DNA of 34,571 nucleotides, from contig RFSP01000001.1 in the NCBI GenBank assembly GCA_009923895.1, forward strand, positions 1 to 34,571, given 5' to 3'. Of the stretch, positions 7,985 through 27,190 are shown one piece after another (position 1 is the stretch's first letter; each line of letters begins with the position of its first letter). Position numbers and translations under genes: made by a program. The notes beneath the pieces were generated by a model. It saw nothing but the letters and a program-made list of their open reading frames with translations, made no database searches and was not told where the DNA came from. Origin of the DNA: Betaproteobacteria bacterium. GTDB taxonomy: Bacteria; Pseudomonadota; Gammaproteobacteria; Burkholderiales; Burkholderiaceae_C.

Positions 7985-8779
7985 CTATTGTCCTCGATCC
8001 AGATCCCACTGGCTGGGATGCCATCCGCCCAACGCCCACTTGGCCAAGGCCGACGTGGTCAAAAAGAGCAGGACACCCGTGACCGCAATCAGGGTCAGGG
8101 CCGCAAACATGCGGGGAATGTTCAATTGGTATCCCGACTGCAGAATCTGGTAGGCCAGGCCCGTGCCCGCCCCTCCAGCACCCGCCACGAATTCCGCCAC
8201 GATGGCCCCAATGAGCGACAGTCCAGCACTGATGCGCAAGCCGCCAAAGAAATAGGGCAATGCCGACGGAATGCGCAAGCGCCACAGCACCTGCCAGCGG
8301 GAGGCCCGCTGCAGACGGAAATAGTTCATCAACCCCACGTCCACACTGCGCAAGCCCAAGGTGGAGTTGGAAATCACGGGAAATATGGCGGCCAGGGTGG
8401 CACACCACACCAGTGCCCAGGTGGTGTCCTTCACCCAAATGATCACCAAAGGCGCCACGGACACGATGGGGGTGACTTGCAACAACACGGCATACGGGAA
8501 GAACGCCCGCTCCAGCCAGCGGCTTTGCACAAAGGCCAGCGACACGCCCACGCCCAACACCGTGGCCACGGCCATGGCCAGCAAGGTGATGTGCAGGGTA
8601 TTGCGCCAAGCAGCCACCAAGATCGGCCAGTCCTGCACCAAAGCCTCCACCACGCGTTCGGGAGAAGGCACGAGATAGACGGGAATCTCCCACGCCAAGA
8701 CGGCGGCTTGCCACAGGCCCAGCAAAGCCATCCCCACCAGCACCGATGGGCCCACACGGCGTGCGAGGTTCATGACCAT
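7985..8779 (-). CDS. ABC transporter permease, NitT/TauT family
   Basis: [47 protein letters not shown]. Confidence 0.92.
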
Positions 8780-8795
8780 GGTCCAGCGAGGCCGT

Positions 8796-9581
8796 TCAAG
8801 CCAGGGCCATTTCTGGCCCGCCCACGCTCGCCTCCAGCAAAAGATCTTGCAAGCGTTTGGCCCAAGCGTTGAATTGCGGTGTCATGCGAAATGAGGGGTC
8901 CCTGGGGTATGGCGCGTCCACCGCAACCTCGGCCACCACGCGGCCCGGGCTGGCCGCCATCACCACCACCCGCTGCGACAAGTACACCGCCTCGACAATC
9001 GAGTGGGTGACAAAAAGAACCGTGAGCTTTCTGGACGACCACAACTGCAGCAATTCGCTGTCCAACCGAGATCGGGTGATCTCGTCCAACGCAGAAAAAG
9101 GTTCGTCCAACAGCAGCAAGGTCGGGTCGGTGGCCAAGCTGCGCGCGAGTGACACGCGCATGCGCATGCCGCCGGACAGCTCGTGCGGTCGATGGCGCGC
9201 AAAGGCCTCCAGCCCCACGCCTTTCAATGCGGCTTGCACACGGGGTTGTGATTTTTCTCGGGGCATCCCCGCCAGGTCCAGCGGCAGCCTCACATTGGCT
9301 TGAACGCGTGCCCACGGCATGAGGGTGGGCTCTTGAAACACAAAACCCAAGCGTTGATCTGATCCGACCTCCACTTGGCCCTGGCTCGGCGAAAGCAGAC
9401 CGGCCACCATGTGCAGCAAGGTGCTCTTGCCACATCCGGAGGGCCCCAGCAAGGTCACAAATTCGCCCGGCGCCACCCGCAAGTCCACAGGCATCAGCGC
9501 TTGTGTGCCGTTGGGGTAGACCTTGGCAGCCGAAGTCACGCGAATGGCCGCGGCGCCGTCTTCCTCCCCCCGATCGATCAC
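8796..9581 (-). CDS. ABC transporter ATP-binding protein, NitT/TauT family
   Basis: Walker A GPSGCGKST, FVFQE, LSGGMRMR, Walker B LLLLDEPF, FVTH. Confidence 0.95.
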   Translation of the reverse strand: MIDRGEEDGAAAIRVTSAAKVYPNGTQALMPVDLRVAPGEFVTLLGPSGCGKSTLLHMVAGLLSPSQGQVEVGSDQRLGFVFQEPTLMPWARVQANVRLPLDLAGMPREKSQPRVQAALKGVGLEAFARHRPHELSGGMRMRVSLARSLATDPTLLLLDEPFSALDEITRSRLDSELLQLWSSRKLTVLFVTHSIVEAVYLSQRVVVMAASPGRVVAEVAVDAPYPRDPSFRMTPQFNAWAKRLQDLLLEASVGGPEMALA

Positions 9582-9597
9582 CTTGCGATCCTCCCGC

Positions 9598-10584
9598 TCA
9601 GGGCATGACCTTGAGATTTTTCACAAATTCGAGGGTGTAGGTCCGCTTGAAGTCCACTTTGGTCGGATCCAAGAGCTTCAACGACACCATGATGTCGTAG
9701 GTCTTCTTCAGCCGCTCTTCGGTCATGACCCCAATGCCCAACTTGGCGGCATCGCCCCCCGACACCAGCCCGGTCTCGTTCATCATCTTGATGCCATGAG
9801 CGATGAGATCGTCAGTCATGTTGGGGTTGTCTTTCTTGATCAGCGCGTTGGCAGCCGAAGGGTCCCCTTTGAGATAGCTCTTCCATCCTTCCATGCTGGC
9901 TTTGACAAAGGCCGCCACCGCTTTGGGACGCTTCTTGATGGTGTCTTCCATGCACACGATGGTGGTGGAATAGGGGGGCCACCCATGGTCGGCCATCAAG
10001 AGCGCTGTGGGCTTGAACTTGGCCTGCTTTTCAATGGCGTACGGCTCGCTCGACAAATACCCCTGTTGCACGGTATTTTTGTCAGCAATGAAGGGCTGGA
10101 CGTTGAAAGTGTAGGGGCGCACCTGCGAATCGGACAACCCGTAGACGCTTCGCAGCCAAGGCCAGAAATTGGTGTTGGCGTCAGAAGAGATCAAAATGGT
10201 TTTGCCCTTGAGGTCTTCCATTTTCTTGAAGACCTCGGGGTGACCAATCATGACCTCGGGGTCTTTTTGGAAGGCGGCAGCGACGGTCACGGCACGCACC
10301 CCTTGCTCGTGCACCTTCATGGTTTGCACGTCGTAACCCATGTAGCAATCGGCCTGGCCCGCGGCCAGCAACTGCAAGCCATTGACCTGCGGACCGCCCA
10401 TGCGCAAGGTCACATCCAGTCCGGCTTTCTTGTACAGGCCTTGGGCCAAAGCTTGATAGAAGCCGCCGTGCTCGGCTTGCGCAAACCAATTGGTGAGATA
10501 GACGAACTTTTCTTGGGCAAGGGCAGCCGAGGAGAGAGAGGCTGAAAAAGCCGCCACGAGACCGATGAAAAAGGGGCGATTCAT
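9598..10584 (-). CDS. ABC transporter substrate-binding protein, NMT1/THI5-like
   Basis: Signal peptide; TNWFAQAEHGGFYQA...GLYKKAGLDV, GGPQVN, FQKDP, QQGYLSSEP. Confidence 0.88.
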   Translation of the reverse strand: MNRPFFIGLVAAFSASLSSAALAQEKFVYLTNWFAQAEHGGFYQALAQGLYKKAGLDVTLRMGGPQVNGLQLLAAGQADCYMGYDVQTMKVHEQGVRAVTVAAAFQKDPEVMIGHPEVFKKMEDLKGKTILISSDANTNFWPWLRSVYGLSDSQVRPYTFNVQPFIADKNTVQQGYLSSEPYAIEKQAKFKPTALLMADHGWPPYSTTIVCMEDTIKKRPKAVAAFVKASMEGWKSYLKGDPSAANALIKKDNPNMTDDLIAHGIKMMNETGLVSGGDAAKLGIGVMTEERLKKTYDIMVSLKLLDPTKVDFKRTYTLEFVKNLKVMP

Positions 10585-10643
10585 GATGCTGAACCTCAAC
10601 ATGCGTGGGGGACGCATTGTGCCCAATTTCAGAAAAGTTCGCC

Positions 10644-14132: not shown

Positions 14133-15118
14133 CAGGACTGTCCCCCGTGCGAGGCGTGGTGGGCGGGGTGATCCAAAGCCGCATCGGCCAGCAATCGCAG
14201 GCACAGTTCTTCGTAGCTGATACCCGCCGCCTTGGCCGACATCGGAACCAGCGAATGGCTGGTCATCCCGGGAGACGTGTTCATCTCCAGAAGGAAGGGC
14301 TTGCGATCGGAGGCCCTGACCATCAAGTCGGCCCGGCCCCAACCCCGACAGCCCAGGGTTCGATACGCCGCCAAAACCAAGCGCTGTATCTCGGCCTCTT
14401 CTGTGGCGCTGAGCCCACTTGGGCAGTGATACTGCGTCACGTCGGTGAAGTACTTGTTTTGGTAGTCGTAGGCGCCTTGAGGCGCGACGATCCGCACCAC
14501 CGGCAGGGCTTGCGCTTGGGCGCCCGTGCCCAAAACAGGGCACGTCACCTCGTCGCCTTCGATAAATTCTTCACACAACACTTCGGTGTCGTAGCGTGCG
14601 CTCAGGGCCACCGCCTCGGCCATCTGGGAGTAGCCTTCGACCTTGGTCACACCGATCGAAGATCCTTCGTGAGGAGGTTTGACGATCAGCGGCAACCCCA
14701 AGGCGTCAGGCACGGTTCTGACCACCTCTTGCGTCTGTCGTTCGGCAGCCAAACAGATCCAGCGAGGCGTCGACAAGGATTCCGATTGCCACACCCGCTT
14801 GGTCATCACCTTGTCCATGGCGATCGCGCTGGCCATCACCCCAGAACCTGTGTAGGGGATGCCCAACCATTCCAATGCGCCTTGGATCGAGCCGTCCTCG
14901 CCATAGCGCCCGTGCAAGGCGATGAAGACGCGGTCAACCCGCTCCTGCTTGAGGTCTTCCAAAGGCCGCTGGGCAGGATCAAAAGCCATGGCCTTCACGC
15001 CCGACGATTGCAGGGCCGCCAACACGCCTGCCCCCGACATGAGCGACACCTCACGCTCGGCACTGAGCCCGCCCATGAGCACGGCCACTTTGCCCAGGCG
15101 AGCCACGTCGATGCTCAT
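14132..15118 (-). CDS. ddl: D-alanine--D-alanine ligase
   Basis: [56 protein letters not shown]. Confidence 0.98.
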
Positions 15119-16188
15119 GCGCGCACCCACCTTTCCAGCTCGTCAGCCACGCGTTCAGCGGCGTGCGGCTTGGCCAGGGCACGGGCACATTCAGCCATCG
15201 TCAACAACTGATTTCGACTCCAGCCTTCCATCAGTTCGCGCAAGGTCTTGGGGGTCAGTTGGTCTTGGGGCAGGTGAACGGCCGCGCCGTGCCGTGCCAT
15301 CCACAGGGCGTTGTCTCTTTGATGAGACGTGGTGCTCACCACCAGCGGCACCAGGACCGAAGGCACCCCTGCAGCGCACAATTCACTCACCGTGACAGCG
15401 CCTGCGCGGCAGATCACCACATCACAGTCCGCCAAGGCCTGCGCCATATCGTCTATGAAGGGCCGCACATCGGCTTGCACTTGGTGCTGCTCATAGGCCT
15501 GGCGCACCTGATCGGCGTGGGCCGAACCGGCCTGGTGCAACACCCGGGGGCGCGCCCGCTGCGACATTTCGGCCAGGGCGGCGGGCACGACGTCGTTGAG
15601 CGCCTTGGCCCCCAAGCTTCCGCCCAGCACCAGCAACTTCAGGGGGCCTGATCGGGCCTCCCACCGCGACTGCGGCGTCGGGATGGCTTCGATTTCTTGA
15701 CGCACCGGGTTGCCGGTGACGATGGCCTTGTCCACCCGCTGAGAGACGGCGCCTTCAAATCCAAACACCACCCGTTGAGCCAGCGGCATCAAGGCGCGGT
15801 TGGACAACAACAATCCGGCATCGGCATTGACCAAGACCAAGGGCTTGCGCAGCAACGCGGCCATGAGCCCTCCGGGAAAGCAGACGTAACCGCCCATGCC
15901 CAGCACCACATGGGCCCCGCGTCGCCGCAGCACCTGAAAGCAACGCACCAGCGAGGCCAGCAACTTGAAGACGCCGGTCACGGTGTGTCGCCATCCTTTG
16001 CCCCGCAAGCCTGAAAAGTCCACCGTGTCCATCTCAATGCCCGTGGGCGGCACCAAGCGGTTTTCCATGCCATGGCGGGTTCCCAGCCAGCTCACGCTCC
16101 AGCCACGGCGCTGCATTTCACGCGCCACCGCCAAGCCCGGGATGATGTGTCCCCCAGTTCCTGCGGCCATGACCACCAAATGACTCAC
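15115..16188 (-). CDS. murG: Undecaprenyldiphospho-muramoylpentapeptide beta-N-acetylglucosaminyltransferase
   Basis: [46 protein letters not shown]; GTG start overlapping the ftsW stop. Confidence 0.98.
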
Positions 16189-17468
16189 AGTCGCCCCCCC
16201 CTCATCAAGGAGCGATTCTCCATGTCGGCCCGCACCACAATGGCCACAGCCACCAAATTGAGCAAGATGGCTGAGCCGCCGTAACTCATCAAGGGCAAAG
16301 TCAGTCCTTTGGTGGGGAGCACGCCCAGGTTGACGCCCATGTTGATGAAGGACTGAAAGCCAAACCACACCCCAATGCCCTGCACCATCAGGCCTGCAAA
16401 GACGCGGTCCAGTGCAATGGCCTGACGACCGATGGCCACAATGCGGCGGGTGAGCCAGAAGAAGGTGATGATCACGGTGGCCACACCGATAAAGCCCAGC
16501 TCCTCACCAATCACAGCCAAGAGGAAGTCGGTGTGGGCCTCGGGCAGGTAATGGAGTTTCTCCACCGAAGAACCCAAGCCTTGACCGAAGATTTCACCGC
16601 GTCCAAATGCAATCAACGAGTGCGTCAATTGATAGGCCTTGCCCTGTGCATAGGCGGGATTCCAGGGGTCCAAATAAGCCAAGATGCGGGTGCGTCGCAA
16701 GTCATCAAAGGCAATGATCAGCGCAAAGGCGCCAATGGCCATGGCCGCGATCAAGAAGAACATGCGGGCGTTGACGCCTCCCAAGAAAAGCACCGCCATG
16801 GCGATCGTGGCAATCACCAAGAACGCGCCCATGTCAGGTTGCCGAAGCAGCAAGACGCCCACAAACAACACAGCCAATGCCATGGGCCAGACCGCTCGAA
16901 CAAAGTTCTCACGGGCCTCCATCTTGCGCACCATGTAGCTGGCTGCATACATGGCAATGGCCAACTTGGTGAACTCAGAAGGCTGGAAATTCATGATGCC
17001 CAAGGGAATCCAGCGCCTCGAGAAATTCACCACCTTGCCAATGAAGGGGATCAACACCACGATCAACAGCACGATGGAAATGAGAAAGACAATCCGGGCG
17101 TGCTTTTCCCAAAACGAAATGGGCATCTGCACCACCGCCAAAGACACCACCGATGCCAAAGCGATGAACAGGACATGCCGCGATAGGAAATAAGTGGGAG
17201 CGTATCGAGAGAACTTGGGGTTGTCGGGCAAGGCCACCGAGGCCGAATACACCATCACCACACCCAACATGACGAGTGCCACCACCACGCCCACCAAAGC
17301 CTGGTCAAAACCGGCCATGCGGGTCACACGGTCGGTGGCGCGATCAAGGCCATCGCGCACCGGTGCCGCTCCATGGACCTCCGATGCACGATTTCGCGCA
17401 TCCCACCAGGACTTCAAGCCTTGAATCGACAAGCGAGTCGACAAGCGAGAGGTCAACGACGCGCTCAT
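16185..17468 (-). CDS. ftsW: SEDS peptidoglycan glycosyltransferase FtsW
   Basis: [50 protein letters not shown]. Confidence 0.98.
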
Positions 17469-18175
17469 GCGGCCTCGCTCGCTTTCGCACTGCCACGTGC
17501 ATCGCGCAGGGCGTGCAGCATCGGGGCCAAAGGACAGCCCAACACACTGCCCAAGGTCAATGCCGTCAAGGCAGACAGCACCGTCGCCGCCTGTTGTTGC
17601 GAATCGTCCGTCCAGCCCGACAGGGCCTGCGAAGGCATCAATCGCTGCAAATGGATTTCAGAGGCCTCGTCCTTGCGCTTTCGCAGGCCGTCATCATCGG
17701 AGATGGCCCGCACCAACCACCGCATACCGCCTTCGGTGACCTCTCCCCAATCGCCCGATCTCGTGGGCGCGTCCAGGCCCACCCCAACTGCCACGCGCGG
17801 TGCGACTTTGACAGCGTGACGAGGGCTCCGCCCAGCGGGCACGGCCGTGGGAGCCAAGGCCGCAACGGCCTCGACATCTCGGCGCAAAATCATTGCCCCC
17901 GAGGTGCCCAGAAAGCTCCCAGCCTGCGAACCGACGGCGTCCAACACGGCCACAGCCGATGGATTCCAATCAGGACTCCATGTCAGATGGGACGCTTCCT
18001 CATCGGACAGACTCCACACCACAATGTCGGGGCCCGATTGCTCAGGCGTGGGAGGCGCCGTCTCACCACGCACGCAGGTCACGGTTCTGCCCGCTCGGCT
18101 CAAGAGAGCCGAGGTCACTCCCGCTGCCTGTTCAAGCAAACGGGTAGAGGCCACGATCAATACCACTTGACTCAT
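17465..18175 (-). CDS. murD: Degenerate, truncated MurD-derived protein (236 aa, central domain only, catalytic motifs lost); pseudoenzyme or open-frame pseudogene
   Basis: Occupies the murD slot between mraY and ftsW with ATGA overlaps at both ends. Residual similarity to recalled Burkholderiales MurD ([44 protein letters not shown]). No GTNGKTT, ELSSFQL, DHLD, or N- and C-terminal domains. Confidence 0.8.
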
Positions 18176-19353
18176 CGCAACTTCAAACTGGCCAGTCCCA
18201 CCAGACACAACAACATCGTGATGATCCAGAACCGAACGACCACTTGGGTCTCGGTCCAACCCTTTTTCTCGAAATGGTGGTGCAAGGGCGCCATCAAAAA
18301 GATGCGGCGCCCCTCGCCGTAGCGTTTGCGGGTGTATTTGAACCAGCTCACCTGAATGATCACGCTCATGGCCTCGGCCACGAAGATGCCCCCCATGATG
18401 GCCAGCACAATTTCCTGTCGGGTGATGACCGCCACCGTCCCCAAGGCACCGCCCAACGCCAGGGCACCCACGTCTCCCATGAACACCTGCGCCGGGTTGG
18501 CGTTGAACCACAAAAATGCGAGCCCCGCTCCCGCCATGGCGGCACAAAAGATGAGCAGTTCGCCCGAGCCCGGAATGTAGGGAAACAGCAGGTACTTGGA
18601 ATACACCGAACTGCCCGTCACGTAAGCAAAGATGCCCAGGGCCGACCCCACCAACACCACCGGCATGATGGCCAGTCCATCCAGGCCATCGGTGAAATTC
18701 ACGGCGTTGCTGGCGCCCACAATGACAAACCAACTCATGGCAATGAAGCCATACACCCCCAAGGGATAGCTCACCGACTTAAAAAACGGCAACATCAAGT
18801 CTGCCTTGGGTGGCAGCTCATTGGAAAAGCCGCTGGTGATCCACCGCAAAAACAACTCCAGCACACGCAGATTGGTGTTCTCCGACACGCTGAAGGCCAA
18901 ATAGGCCGCGGCCAACAATCCAATCAAAGACTGCCAAAAGAATTTTTCTCGCGATCGCATCCCTTCGGGGTCTTTGTAGACCACCTTGCGGTAGTCATCG
19001 ACCCAACCGATGGCGCCATAACCAAAGGTGACCAGCATGACGACCCACACGAATCGGTTGGACCAGTCAAACCAGCACAGCGTGGACACCCCAATGCCGA
19101 TCAAGACCAAGACGCCACCCATGGTGGGGGTCCCTCGTTTGCCCAAGTGGGACTGCACACCGTATTCGCGAATCGGCTGGCCGATCTTCATCTGCGTGAG
19201 CCGACGGATCACCCAAGGACCAAAGGCCAAGCCAATCAGCAGCGCGGTCATGGCAGCCAACACCGCTCGGAAAGTGATGTACTGAAAGACCCGCAAGAAG
19301 CCCAAGGCTTCAGGGCTCAATGACATCAACCATTGGCTCAGGCTAAGCAGCAT
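18172..19353 (-). CDS. mraY: Phospho-N-acetylmuramoyl-pentapeptide transferase
   Basis: [46 protein letters not shown]. Confidence 0.99.
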
Positions 19354-20761
19354 GTTGTCTTCCTTGCGAGGTCAAAGCCTGGACCACACGCTCCATGGCC
19401 ATGAACCGTGAGCCTTTGACCAGCACCGATTTCACCGAGGGCATGTTCAGGGAGTCTTGACTCAGGGCCTGCACCAGGGTCATCGTGTCAGCAAACCAAC
19501 GCGCCTTCGGACCAAAGGCTTGAGCAGCCGCCTCACACAAAGTCCCGGCACACCACAGGTGCTCCAGACCCTGCTCGCGCGCATACGCTCCCACTTCTGT
19601 GTGAAAGGCAACGCCTTGATCGCCCACCTCTCCCATGTCTCCCAAGATCAACCATCGAGGTGCGGGCAGCTCGGTCAAGACGTCAATGGCCGCCCGAACC
19701 GAATCTGGGTTGGCGTTGTAGGTGTCATCAACGAGCGACACCGATGCAGCCGCTCCACCCGCCAGGTGGCATGCCATCAAACTCGAGCGCCCTTTGACGG
19801 CCCGAAACGCATTCAACCCGGATTCGATGGCCTGCATGGGTGCTCCGGCGGCTACAGCGGCAGCCGCCGCGCCCAATGCGTTCTTGACGTTGTGACGGCC
19901 CGCCATGTGCAAGACAAAAGACAGAGGTCCCGCCGGCGTGGTGGCTTGTACCTGCCATCCTTGGCCCTGCCATTTCGAGCGACCGAGCACATCGGCCTTG
20001 ACCGCGTCTGCTGCCGAAGTGTCGCGGGCCAAAGCAAAGGTCATCGTGCGTCGAGCGCCGGCCAGCTCACGCCACAGCGGGGCGTACGCATCGTCGGCTG
20101 GAAAGACAGCGGTCCCGTCGGGCGGCAAAGAGGCAATCACGGCGCCGTTTTCTTCGGCCACCGCTTTGACTGTGGCCATGAACTCCTGATGCTCACGCTG
20201 GGCGTTGTTGACCAGAGCCACGTGTGGGGCAGACATGGCCGCCAGTCCTGCAATCTCGCCGGGGTGATTCATGCCCAGCTCCAACACCGCCGCCTCATGG
20301 TGCGCACGCAATCGCAGCAAGGTCAAGGGCACACCGATGTGGTTGTTGAAATTGCCTTCGGTGGCCAAGGAGCGATCTGCCTTCCAGGCCCTCAATATGG
20401 CCGCAATCATCTGCGTGACCGTGGTCTTGCCATTGCTGCCGGTGACGGCTATCACGCACAGTTGCAGCTGCTGCCGCCAGCCGGCCGCCAAGGTTTGCAG
20501 GGCCCACAAACTGTTCGGCACCTCAATGCCAGGCAAGTCGCTGGCCTGCAGTCCCCGCTCGGCTACAGCGGCCAACGCCCCTGCTTTTTTGGCCTGCGGC
20601 AAGAAGTCATGGGCATCGAAACGATCCCCACGCAAGGCCACAAAAAGATCGCCCGGCCGCAAGGTCCTCGTGTCGGTATGCACCCGCTGCACACGCAGTG
20701 CCCCGTCCCCCAACAAGACGGAGCCGGGCAGCAGGGCGTGGGCTTGTGACAAGGACAGCAT
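19343..20761 (-). CDS. murF: UDP-MurNAc-tripeptide--D-Ala-D-Ala ligase (stand-alone, not a MurE-MurF fusion)
   Basis: [68 protein letters not shown]. Confidence 0.97.
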
Positions 20762-22548
20762 CAAAAGCTCTCCTGTTCTGCAGGGCCCGGTTGCACGGCG
20801 ATTTGCGGCTTGAACTCAATGTCAGGGGCCACATTCATCATGCGCAAGGTTTGCTGAACCACTTGCGCGAACACCGGGGCGGCCACGTCACCGCCAAAGT
20901 AGATGCCTTTGCTGGGCTCATCCACCATGACCGCCACCACGATTCTGGGAGCACTCACGGGTGCGAGTCCCACAAACCACGCGCGGTATTTGTTGGATGC
21001 GTAAGTCTTGCCTTCCTGCTTGTGGGCCGTCCCGGTCTTGCCACCCACCGAATAGCCCATGGCTTGGGCCTTGGGAGCGGTACCTCCTGGCCCCGCGGCC
21101 ATTTGGAGCATCTTGCGCACTTCTTGCACCGTTTTGGCTGACAGCACACGCACGCCTGCAACCGGCATCGGCTTGCCGTCGGGCCCTTTCGCACTGGAGT
21201 CCTGGCGCAGCATGGTCACGGGAATCAATTCGCCATCCCGCGCAAAGACGGTGTAGGCGCGCGCCATCTGAAACAGCGAGGCCGAGAGCCCATAGCCATA
21301 GCTCATGGTGGCCTGCTCGATGGGCCGCCACGTCTTGAAAGGGCGCAAACGGCCCGTCACGGTGCCAGGAAACTCCAGTTGGGGCTTCTGACCAAAACCC
21401 ACCTGAGAGAAAAGCTCCCACATCTCGCGGGGCGCCATCTGCATGGCCATCTTGACCGTGCCCACGTTGCTGGATTTTTGAATCACCTCCTGCACGGTCA
21501 ACACGCCGTGCGGGTGCGCATCTTTGATGGTCGAGCCGGTGATGTTGATCGCCCCTGGCGCGGTCTGTATGGGGGTCTGCGGGGTGACACGGCCGGTCTC
21601 GATGGCCAGCGAAGCCACAAAGGGCTTCATCACCGAACCGGGCTCAAAAATGTCGGTCAACGCCCGATTTCTCAATTGAGCGCCCGACAAGCCTTGGCGG
21701 CTGTTGGGGTTGAAGCTGGGGTAATTGGCCAGGGCCAAGACTTCACCCGTCACCACGTCAAGGACCACCACGCTACCGGCCTTGGCGTTGTGTTCCATGA
21801 CCGCATCGCGCACGCGCTGCCATGCGAAGAACTGCACCTTGCTGTCAATCGACAACGTGATGTCACGTCCATTGACGGGCTCCAAGCGATCGCCAATGTC
21901 CTCCACCACCCGACCCAGCCGGTCCTTGACCACGCCGCGGGATCCGTCCTTGCCCTTCAAGTGGTCTTGAAAGGCCAACTCGATGCCTTCTTGTCCCGCC
22001 TCCTCAACGTTGGTGAATCCCACCACATGTGCAGCCGCCTCGCCCTCCGGGTAGCTGCGACGGAATTCAGGGACTTGGTACACACCTTTGGCGCCGACGG
22101 ACTTGACCTGTTCCCACACCTCGTTGTCCACCTGCCGACGCAACCAAGCGAACTCCCCACTGCCTTCGGTGCGCGACTGAAGCTCCGCAGCCGACATGCC
22201 CAACAACTGCGACAGCGCCTTGCGTTGGGCCACGTCGGCCTCGAAGTCCTTGGGGATGGCCCACACCGAGGGCGTGGGCACACTGGTGGCCAAGACGACG
22301 CCATGGCGATCAAGAACCCGCCCCCGGCTGGCCGGCAATTTCAAGGTGTGCGCGTAGCGCTTTTCACCCTGCTTGAGGTAAAAGTCTGCACCCACGACTT
22401 GGATATAAACGGCCCGACCAATCAACAGCAAGAAAGCCAGCGCCACCATCACCACGACGAAACGCGACCGCCAAGGTGGCGTCTTGCTGGCCAGCAACGG
22501 GCTGGTGGCGTAATTGACCCCTCGTGCTGCGGTGGCCGGGCGCATCAC
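20761..22548 (-). CDS. ftsI: Penicillin-binding protein 3 (septal D,D-transpeptidase)
   Basis: N-terminal TM, RGRVLDR, SxxK (GSVMK), SxN (SSN), KTG; start is GTG 22548 or ATG 22545. Confidence 0.97.
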   Translation of the reverse strand: MMRPATAARGVNYATSPLLASKTPPWRSRFVVVMVALAFLLLIGRAVYIQVVGADFYLKQGEKRYAHTLKLPASRGRVLDRHGVVLATSVPTPSVWAIPKDFEADVAQRKALSQLLGMSAAELQSRTEGSGEFAWLRRQVDNEVWEQVKSVGAKGVYQVPEFRRSYPEGEAAAHVVGFTNVEEAGQEGIELAFQDHLKGKDGSRGVVKDRLGRVVEDIGDRLEPVNGRDITLSIDSKVQFFAWQRVRDAVMEHNAKAGSVVVLDVVTGEVLALANYPSFNPNSRQGLSGAQLRNRALTDIFEPGSVMKPFVASLAIETGRVTPQTPIQTAPGAINITGSTIKDAHPHGVLTVQEVIQKSSNVGTVKMAMQMAPREMWELFSQVGFGQKPQLEFPGTVTGRLRPFKTWRPIEQATMSYGYGLSASLFQMARAYTVFARDGELIPVTMLRQDSSAKGPDGKPMPVAGVRVLSAKTVQEVRKMLQMAAGPGGTAPKAQAMGYSVGGKTGTAHKQEGKTYASNKYRAWFVGLAPVSAPRIVVAVMVDEPSKGIYFGGDVAAPVFAQVVQQTLRMMNVAPDIEFKPQIAVQPGPAEQESF

Positions 22549-25720: not shown

Positions 25721-26046
25721 GAAGCAAGCCGATAGGCCGGATTCTGTGCGGCAAGTTTCCCCGCCGTGACCGCCATTCCTCTGGGCCGGGGGTCGCCCAC
25801 CCGGCTCGGTGCCACCTACCCGCCGACTCCGCGAGACCACGTCAACGTCGGCCTACTTGGTGTTGCTGCGCGTAGAGATTGCCCGTTTCACCCTGGGAAA
25901 GATCGCTCTTGCCCAGACTCGTCTCTGTTGCTCTGATCCTCGGCTTGCGCCGGGCAGCCGTTAACTGCTACGCCGCTCTGTGCAGTCCGGACCTTCCTCC
26001 AGCGCCGTGTTTCCACGATCGCGCCAGCGGCGGTCTGGCTTGCTTC
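25721..26046 (-). ncRNA. rnpB: RNase P RNA, bacterial type A
   Basis: Minus strand: P1 GAAGCAAGCC...GGCTTGCTTC; GAGGAAGGTCCGGACT; AGAGCAACAGAGA; GGGTGAAACGGGCAATCTC; 3' ACAGAATCCGGCCTA. Confidence 0.95.
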
Positions 26047-26092
26047 ACGCACGCATTGTCCCATTCTTTGGGACGTGGTTGGGGGAGGCGGT

Positions 26093-26297
26093 AGATTGCT
26101 TCGCTTCGCTCGCAATGACGCAAAACCGCCCTTGCAAGGAGGCCGTAGGCCCAGGCCCCCGTCATTGCGAGGAGGCCAAAGGCCCAGGCCCCCGTCATCA
26201 CGAGGAGACCGAAGGCCTTGGCCCCCGTCATTGCGAGGAGGCCAAAGGCCCAGGCCCCCGTCATTGCGAGGAGGCCAAAGGCCGACGCGGCAATCTC
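26093..26297. repeat. REP-like palindromic element with a 33-bp tandem amplification (5 units) and one inverted copy
   Basis: Units GTCATTGCGAGGAGGCCAAAGGCCCAGGCCCCC start at 26128 (degenerate), 26161, 26194 (variant), 26227 and 26260 (ends ..GACGCGGCAATCTC); inverted copy AGATTGCTTCGCTTCGCTCGCAATGACG at 26093-26120. Confidence 0.9.
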
Positions 26298-26317
26298 GGG
26301 GCCTTCAGCCCTCTTCT

Positions 26318-27190
26318 TCACCCCTGTTGCAACGCCCGAATCCGCTCCTCGATCGGAGGATGGCTGGAGAACAGCGCCATGAGACCGTTGGATCCGCCCG
26401 CAATCCCCATGGTCTTCACCGACTGCGGCAGCTCGCCACCTTGCAAACTCCCCAGACGCGCCAGGGCGTTGATCATGGGCTCACGACGACCCATGAGCTG
26501 GGATGCACCTGCATCGGCACGGAACTCTCGCTGACGCGAAAACCACGCCACGATGATGGCGGCCACCAGCCCAAATACGATGTCAAGCACGATGGTGGTG
26601 ATCATGTATCCCAAGCCCGGGCCTTCACGGTCGTTGCGCAAGACCACCTTGTCCACAAAGTAGCCAATTGCGCGAGACAAAAACACCACGAAAGTGTTCA
26701 TGACGCCTTGGATGAGCGTCATGGTCACCATGTCGCCATTGGCCACGTGGGCCACTTCGTGCCCAATCACCGCTTCGACTTCTTCGCGGGTCATGTTTTC
26801 CAACAAGCCGGTGGACACCGCCACCAGCGCCGAGTCCTTGAACGCCCCCGTTGCGAAGGCGTTGGGCTCGCCCTCGTACAAAGCCACCTCGGGCATCTGC
26901 ACGCCGGCCTTTTGCGCAAACTGAGACACCGTGCGCACCAACCACTGGTGTGTGGGGTCGGTCGAATCATTGATGATCACCGCCCCGGTGGACCATTTGG
27001 CCATGGGCTTGCTCATCAGCAGCGAAATAAACGCGCCGCCAAACCCCATGACCGCGGCAAACCCGAGCAAGGTGCCCCAATTGAGCCCGCTTTGCGACAG
27101 GTAACGGTTCACGCCCAACAGCGATGCCGTGATGCTCAGCACCACCATGACAGCCAGGTTGGTCAAGACGAAAAGGACTATGCGTTTCAT
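26318..27190 (-). CDS. htpX: Membrane zinc metalloprotease HtpX
   Basis: [55 protein letters not shown]. Confidence 0.98.

Follow-up and report, generated by a model that had tools for sequence, protein, structure and literature searches.

MurC, MurD and MurE together make the product that Mpl salvages, and the P-loop, ELSSFQL, N..DHLD and RGRHN motifs of MurD have catalytic roles. Proteins that have lost such motifs may still be of use: pseudoenzyme adaptors arise by duplication, degeneration and complementation. Any structural role that Mur ligases play together with the membrane steps is hard to test, because catalysis and binding reside in one essential protein. There are nonetheless hints of such roles. 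The main text of a survey of Mur chimeras puts MurD-FtsW fusions at 3% of the total and gives a KD of about 0.8 uM for the binding of B. pertussis MurD to MurE-MurF (PMC10214165), and MurG and MreB have been described as scaffolds (PMC6420597, PMC4929429). I consider here a stretch of 34,571 nucleotides (the window) from a 2.14 Mb genome that is 80% complete (G000), in which catalysis and binding of MurD have apparently been separated by evolution.

A MurD remnant between mraY and ftsW

The dcw cluster of the window lies on the minus strand and cleanly lacks both murE and murC: ftsI adjoins murF through a TGATG overlap (20759-20764) and murG adjoins ddl through an ATGA overlap (15115-15118). 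Between mraY (18172-19353) and ftsW (16185-17468) is an ORF of 236 codons that starts with ATG at 18175, ends with TGA at 17465 and has no internal stop. A preliminary description of the window had called attention to this uninterrupted frame and its overlaps with both neighbors. The overlaps are real, and both are ATGA, the ORF's own ATG meeting the mraY stop and its own stop meeting the ftsW ATG. The ORF and ftsW occupy separate frames and do not encode one polypeptide, as a MurD-FtsW chimera does. The surroundings have their own peculiarities. An ABC transporter group (8000-10626) sits between ftsZ and lpxC; MraY has, near its residues 157-176, an insert specific to the lineage, which most genomes of other families lack and at which their matches break; and an ORF of tandem repeats of about 11 codons (AFGLLAMTGAW-like; 25968-26321), with no credible Pfam match, lies upstream of an MFS transporter.

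Searches of Pfam, NCBIfam and PDB sequences with the product of the ORF (17465-18175), which I call the remnant, gave no match. A search of 5.8 billion proteins gave 67 hits in all, among them MurD proteins with E down to 2e-26, and six short orthologues (236-249 aa, 47-96% identity) that rank above ordinary MurD fragments. Identity to the corresponding parts of MurDs of the family is 35-50%. A profile search of 1.84 billion representatives added one further remnant type (P0072) and one fragment, while the ESM Atlas matches were unnamed clusters and a weak Mur_ligase_M lead. No remnant-like score appeared in 300 family genomes drawn (best E 8e-45, vs 2e-113), 30 of whose loci were read. The fold agrees with the matches: AlphaFold2 run on ten remnant sequences alone gave a mean pLDDT of 80, and the best Foldseek match to that model is MurD (E 2.7e-9). 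A second model, partly circular as a test of the MurD fold since its alignment included full MurDs, reached a pLDDT of 84.5 (VIA Z 20.2, rmsd 3.5, 191 aligned, P. aeruginosa MurD 108-325). MurD homology, claimed in the preliminary description, is thus borne out by the protein matches and by the model built from remnants only.

What has been lost is equally clear from the alignment to MurD. The remnant begins at the P-loop strand and stops at the EPHR hinge, so that both outer domains are gone. Where the P-loop reads ITGTNGKTT, residues 7-15 (18131-18157) read IVASTRLLE, and GxNGK[TS]T is missing from all aligned remnants. ELSSFQL has become SLSDEEA (residues 55-61; 17993-18013), the N..DHLD segment is deleted, and the stretch that replaces RGRHN (residues 186-200; 17576-17620) is 0% identical to the canonical consensus. 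The alignment therefore confirms what had been said of the erased motifs, of the absent N-terminal domain and of an end before the PHR hinge and D-Glu domain. Judged as a MurD, the remnant has the central-domain fold and the descent, and lacks GxHN, the PHR hinge, the N- and C-terminal domains and a score above the TIGR01087 cut-off. By its sequence, then, it is a catalytically dead derivative of MurD and, since every catalytic feature fails, falls outside the MurD enzyme family. A database entry may bear the name MurD, as P0004 does, and yet be a dead copy.

Selection on the reading frame

One might suppose that this is a pseudogene in slow decay after the enzyme moved elsewhere. The remnant is indeed the fastest-evolving gene of the cluster, 49% identical between G000 and a second genome with the same arrangement (G225), as compared with 73-98% for nine neighbors; it matches no family model; and a few 86-aa database entries, known as protein entries only, begin at an internal Met. 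The frames are nevertheless open in G000, G225, a third such genome (G217) and a further locus (L109), despite near-saturated synonymous divergence. In neutral simulations 0.5% of copies were stop-free at 0.5 changes per site and none of 2000 at 1.9. Against L109 the remnant's dN/dS is 0.35 (Nei-Gojobori; 11 changes at 521 nonsynonymous and 11 at 187 synonymous sites; p 0.023), and rough values, dS being near saturation, are 0.27 against G225 and 0.35 against G217. Fourteen of the 15 members of its database cluster are 236 aa long. Contigs of four river RNA runs, in which carry-over of DNA is possible, span most or all of the ORF, one of them reaching from mraY into ftsW; they differ by 14 synonymous and 11 nonsynonymous changes and by no indel in the ORF. 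Slow decay is thus very improbable and already largely refuted.

The same numbers support purifying selection on the remnant at the level of protein, and neither its frame nor its dN/dS is that of a pseudogene. Selection on the ORF, which the preliminary description had surmised, has held up under comparison of orthologues. The constraint is weaker than in the neighbor genes, whose dN/dS is 0.02-0.19 in distant pairs (up to 0.32 for murF in the close pair), and it is uneven. Among 13 cluster members of the same length, 2 of 59 sites vary within residues 127-185 and 20 of 177 elsewhere. Within those residues pS is 0.69 and 0.64, so that synonymous sites are near saturation and the constraint must be on protein rather than DNA. 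Constraint at the DNA level was rejected as the reason for conservation: amino acids are conserved and bases are not, and a scan of 17300-18400 for a sigma-70-like consensus found no site, where 0.2 would be expected, though a short promoter off the consensus is conceivable. Two other genes of the cluster also diverge much faster in the remnant clade than do FtsI, MraY and FtsA (96-98% identical to G225), namely those for MurF (19343-20764; 73%) and MurG (15115-16188; 76%).

A second murD and the division of conserved residues

A contig of the same genome (C115) carries in a row the 3' end of murE, a full murD of 479 aa and murC. This relocated MurD scores 343 bits against TIGR01087, whose cut-off is 212, and the whole murD and murC of the contig both score above NCBIfam cut-offs. 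G225 and G217 share the arrangement, each with a remnant between mraY and ftsW (240 aa in G225, 207-209 aa in G217; 207-249 aa across orthologues) and a separate murE-murD-murC group. From these sequences, the D-Glu ligase job is done by the second, full-length murD of that relocated group. The possibility that these bacteria have given up de novo tripeptide synthesis and rely on Mpl was rejected, since murE, murD and murC are all on C115; the start of an mpl-like gene is on another contig (C358). Nor has the elongation machinery evidently been lost: mreB is found in all three genomes with the split, and a second SEDS gene turned up in G225 and in G217 but not in the 80% complete G000.

The split is rare and is sampled from one evolutionary origin only. 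A high-scoring MurD without inserts was found in just these three of 222 genomes of the genus (14 without a match, the rest judged by score and by fetched loci, with the unpublished G099 counted here only). A candidate intermediate with two murD genes (G233) was rejected when its extra match proved to be ordinary murC. The sequencing runs that contain the stretch are labelled mostly as river or freshwater metagenomes, and the genomes are small, 2.8-2.9 Mb for G217 and G225, where most of the genus has 3.5-6 Mb.

The relocated groups differ in their surroundings. The group stands behind hemX-hemY in G217 and behind tcuB in G225, and in G000 it converges on a D-amino acid dehydrogenase gene. In the one G225 assembly, a single ORF of 981 aa that passes both family cut-offs joins murE to the relocated murD (contig C9; L105:11626-14571); the chimera survey makes no mention of 'MurE-MurD' in its main text (PMC10214165). 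Moving murE-murD-murC may allow separate regulation. No match to glutamate racemase (murI) was found in any of four genomes, G000, G225, G217 and the canonical G018. A gene like that for D-amino acid aminotransferase, below cut-off, occurs in G000, G217 and G018 and is likely, from its sequence, to be the source of D-Glu in these genomes.

Did the second murD come from outside? The trees and the nearest database relatives reject a horizontal origin. In the tree from well-filled columns, the six relocated MurDs group together (100/100) on a stem of length 0.77, nested among MurDs of the same genus (93/90) with G018 as sister (87/86). The MraY tree gives ((G000, G225), G217) at 100/96, again with G018 as sister (91/87), and relocated MurC also falls among MurCs of the genus. 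The relocated MurD, then, follows the species tree, as a duplicate should. Monophyly of the remnants is neither recovered nor rejected (p-AU 0.31), in trees based on 138-147 columns. These trees show, within the reach of sequence data, that both copies stem from a single murD, which became two in the common ancestor of G000, G225 and G217. Because murE, murD and murC follow one another in the relocated group as they did ancestrally, the simplest history would be a segmental duplication and then reciprocal loss. Nothing of murE or murC is left in the cluster, whereas murD survives there, cut down to its central domain and under selection.

The two copies differ in what they retained. Canonical MurDs of the group bear two inserts in the central domain; the remnants keep both and the relocated enzyme has lost both. 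The spacing from DHLD to GxHN reflects this: it exceeds 100 in 199 canonical MurDs, as against 84-89 in the relocated copies, and other families have 85-90. Insert 1, a basic loop rich in Pro and Gly (residues 107-127; 17795-17857), is about 21 aa long in remnants and canonical MurD, with 4-5 K/R and under 1 acidic residue, and about 6 aa in the relocated enzyme. Insert 2, a mixed-charge loop of low model confidence (residues 158-174; 17654-17704), is about 19 aa in the remnants and about 2.5 aa in the enzyme. It forms the tip of a hairpin between the strand GGMRWLVRA (residues 149-157; 17705-17731), 89% identical to the canonical consensus, and a return strand (residues 175-185; 17621-17653) that is 82% identical. 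The loop itself is 35% identical, its RK being invariant in all 10 aligned remnant sequences. The charged insert (17634-17756) had been described beforehand as the best-preserved part; this is true of the flanking strands and of the RK, and not of the loop between them. Residues 140-181 as a whole are 64% identical, equal to the C-terminal helices (residues 201-225; 17501-17575), in which L216, A217, M219 and H221 are kept by the remnants and lost by the relocated enzyme.

Could the old cleft have acquired a new ligand or a new catalytic activity? The fold is retained, as that would demand, yet the remnants agree least in the half that once held the active site (17-37% for residues 1-100), and part of that half is deleted in the G217 type. 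I find a new activity there hardly credible.

A wider comparison took in the 152 columns that show 80% conservation or more across 147 non-redundant canonical MurDs, read in 7 remnants and 6 relocated enzymes. The enzyme alone keeps 57, including those of the P-loop, ELSSFQL, N..DHLD and RGRHN motifs; the remnant alone keeps 23; both keep 22, neither keeps 19, and 31 are intermediate. Of the columns kept only by the remnant, 18 are lineage-specific and 2 universal, vs 17 and 37 of those kept only by the enzyme (Fisher p 1e-5, the columns not being independent). Taken over the lineage-specific columns, 59 in all, the share kept is 0.42 for remnant and enzyme alike, so the partition is regional, the N-terminal half kept by the enzyme and the hairpin and C-terminal helices by the remnant. 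These counts show, at the level of sequence, that the two copies lost largely complementary residues, although a branch as long as the enzyme's (0.77) could lose residues with no function passing to the other copy. Two marks of a subfunctionalised pair, common descent from one native gene and complementary loss, are found in the sequences.

A proposed binding role

I propose that the remnant is a non-enzymatic binding adaptor, subfunctionalised from MurD, that works through the hairpin face and the two surface loops lost by the relocated enzyme. I hold this to be somewhat better than an even bet. The main evidence that MurD had a second job is that the relocated copy lost the inserts that the remnant keeps, and when a dead domain retains surface loops that its active twin has discarded, a binding job is most likely what was kept. 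MurD of this family would have two jobs, ligation of D-Glu and docking by way of the WLVRA/RK/HLQRLMP hairpin and neighboring helices. After duplication each copy would have retained one, the relocated enzyme catalysis and the remnant binding. That a dead MurD derivative is under purifying selection upholds one half of the earlier surmise of selection for a non-catalytic role; the scaffold role is the inferred half.

It may be objected that the remnant is a folded spacer, an ORF whose use is to time the passage of ribosomes from mraY to ftsW, its amino acids constrained only so that the unavoidable product folds harmlessly. This would account for the ATGA that the ORF shares with each neighbor in G000, for a dN/dS above that of the neighbors, for the intact predicted fold, and for the many kept residues that belong to core or turn, including the 22 columns kept by both copies. 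But the two sibling deletions, of murE and murC, were healed by direct overlaps, and for this reason the spacer is the less likely reading. A spacer in small genomes (2.8-2.9 Mb) would also be expected to shorten, and lengths stay at 207-249 aa; nor would one expect disordered or low-confidence loops to keep their length, their charge and an invariant RK, as these do. I consider a spacer rather unlikely. Translational coupling into ftsW as the sole reason for the ORF, one of the roles first suggested for it, is weakened by the same new overlaps and by the conservation of amino acids.

To what, then, would an adaptor bind? The existence of MurD-FtsW chimeras and the binding of MurD to MurE-MurF, as far as the survey's main text describes them, support FtsW and MurF as candidates. 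Of these, the N-terminal tail of FtsW would tentatively be the likeliest partner, with MurF or MurG as second candidate. The cytoplasmic tail is encoded by the next, overlapping gene, and its P[VI]R motif (PVR, FtsW residues 36-38; 17355-17363, minus strand), a candidate binding site, would pack against the hairpin. Docking of the remnant on the tail would help to bring FtsW to the division site, or to stabilise or regulate it there.

P[VI]R stands within a variable tail, and still it is present in FtsW of the three split genomes and in all 134 distinct loci that have a canonical murD and a tail. It occurs in 27 of 29 further family loci. Divergent genomes of the family with atypical inserts have P[VILM]R in 3 of 7, three more having given no FtsW tail. 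In other families the motif is absent from all 3 genomes with insert 2 only and from all 25 without inserts. Four of 29 loci were dropped from the comparison: two without a MurD motif, one without FtsW, and the unpublished G545. Since the FtsW motif and the inserts are each traits of a lineage, finding them together does not count as independent evidence: kinship alone could produce the pattern. Two features of the tail deserve mention in their own right. Residues 36-56 (17301-17363) vary across the genus and adjoin a divergent N-terminus, yet are nearly identical in G000, G225 and G217 (20 of 21 residues between G000 and G217), and at 17425 river strains show an in-frame expansion of a 12-base repeat at the FtsW N-terminus.

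Alternatively, the basic loops might bind anionic membrane lipid or nucleic acid, or the remnant might tune the Mur complex by competing for the partners of MurD. Insert 1, with its several K/R and scarcely an acidic residue, and the invariant RK would suit the former, and the chimera survey's account of Mur-Mur contacts involving the central domains of MurE and MurF (PMC10214165) would suit the latter. The strongest conservation, however, is in hydrophobic and polar strand residues (WLVRA, HLQ.LMP, LAPMLH), not in the charged loops, and I regard these ideas as quite unlikely.

The adaptor model can be pushed further. It is possible, though I would not wager on it, that MurD of Comamonadaceae/Sphaerotilaceae moonlights, its lineage-specific hairpin docking on P[VI]R of FtsW so as to link precursor synthesis with septal polymerisation, and that the present clade split the jobs, leaving a stand-alone FtsW-binding pseudoenzyme. 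If true, that protein would be a new divisome component derived from a Mur ligase. In any event the pair names residues to mutate (WLVRA, RK, HLQRLMP, LAPMLH), the relocated MurD offers a natural insert-less form, predicted to be active, for swaps, and the FtsW motif offers a candidate partner site. Insert 2 is also present in other Burkholderiales families, so what holds for these three uncultured genomes could hold far more widely.

How does all this compare with what is known? Like the MurD enzyme, the remnant has the fold of the central domain and a place between mraY and ftsW; unlike it, the remnant has no P-loop, ELSSFQ, DHLD, GxHN, outer domains or TIGR01087 match, and a full-length paralogue exists elsewhere. 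The MurD2/MurL pathway, as far as its published descriptions go (PMC8788868, PMC5808125), is similar in that an atypical MurD occurs in genomes without a glutamate racemase match (0 of 4 here). It differs in that the relocated MurD nests among canonical MurDs of the genus, that the canonical G018 also lacks a murI match, and that no gene, and hence no murL, lies between the relocated murE, murD and murC. A long third insert of low complexity, Ala-rich and acidic, precedes LPEVWVLELSS in L108:9706-11445 and many other family MurDs, and brings many canonical MurDs to 550-700 aa.

The Mur chimeras and the proposed Mur complex likewise speak for non-catalytic contacts of Mur ligases (PMC10214165, PMC6420597, PMC4929429). 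There, so far as these sources describe them, the proteins are active enzymes or fusions, whereas the surface proposed here belongs to a dead gene that stands alone; no fusion was seen among the remnant's 120 best longer matches. Searches of the main texts of freely available papers gave no account of a dead Mur paralogue or of a split between remnant and enzyme.

There are also the adaptors born of duplication, degeneration and complementation. The remnant likely works as an adaptor pseudoenzyme of this known kind, arisen by subfunctionalisation, for which the same literature yielded no case among Mur ligases. As in those systems, a dead duplicate stands beside an active copy and the losses are complementary. 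What distinguishes the remnant is that the partition runs within a single domain and includes the reciprocal loss of inserts.
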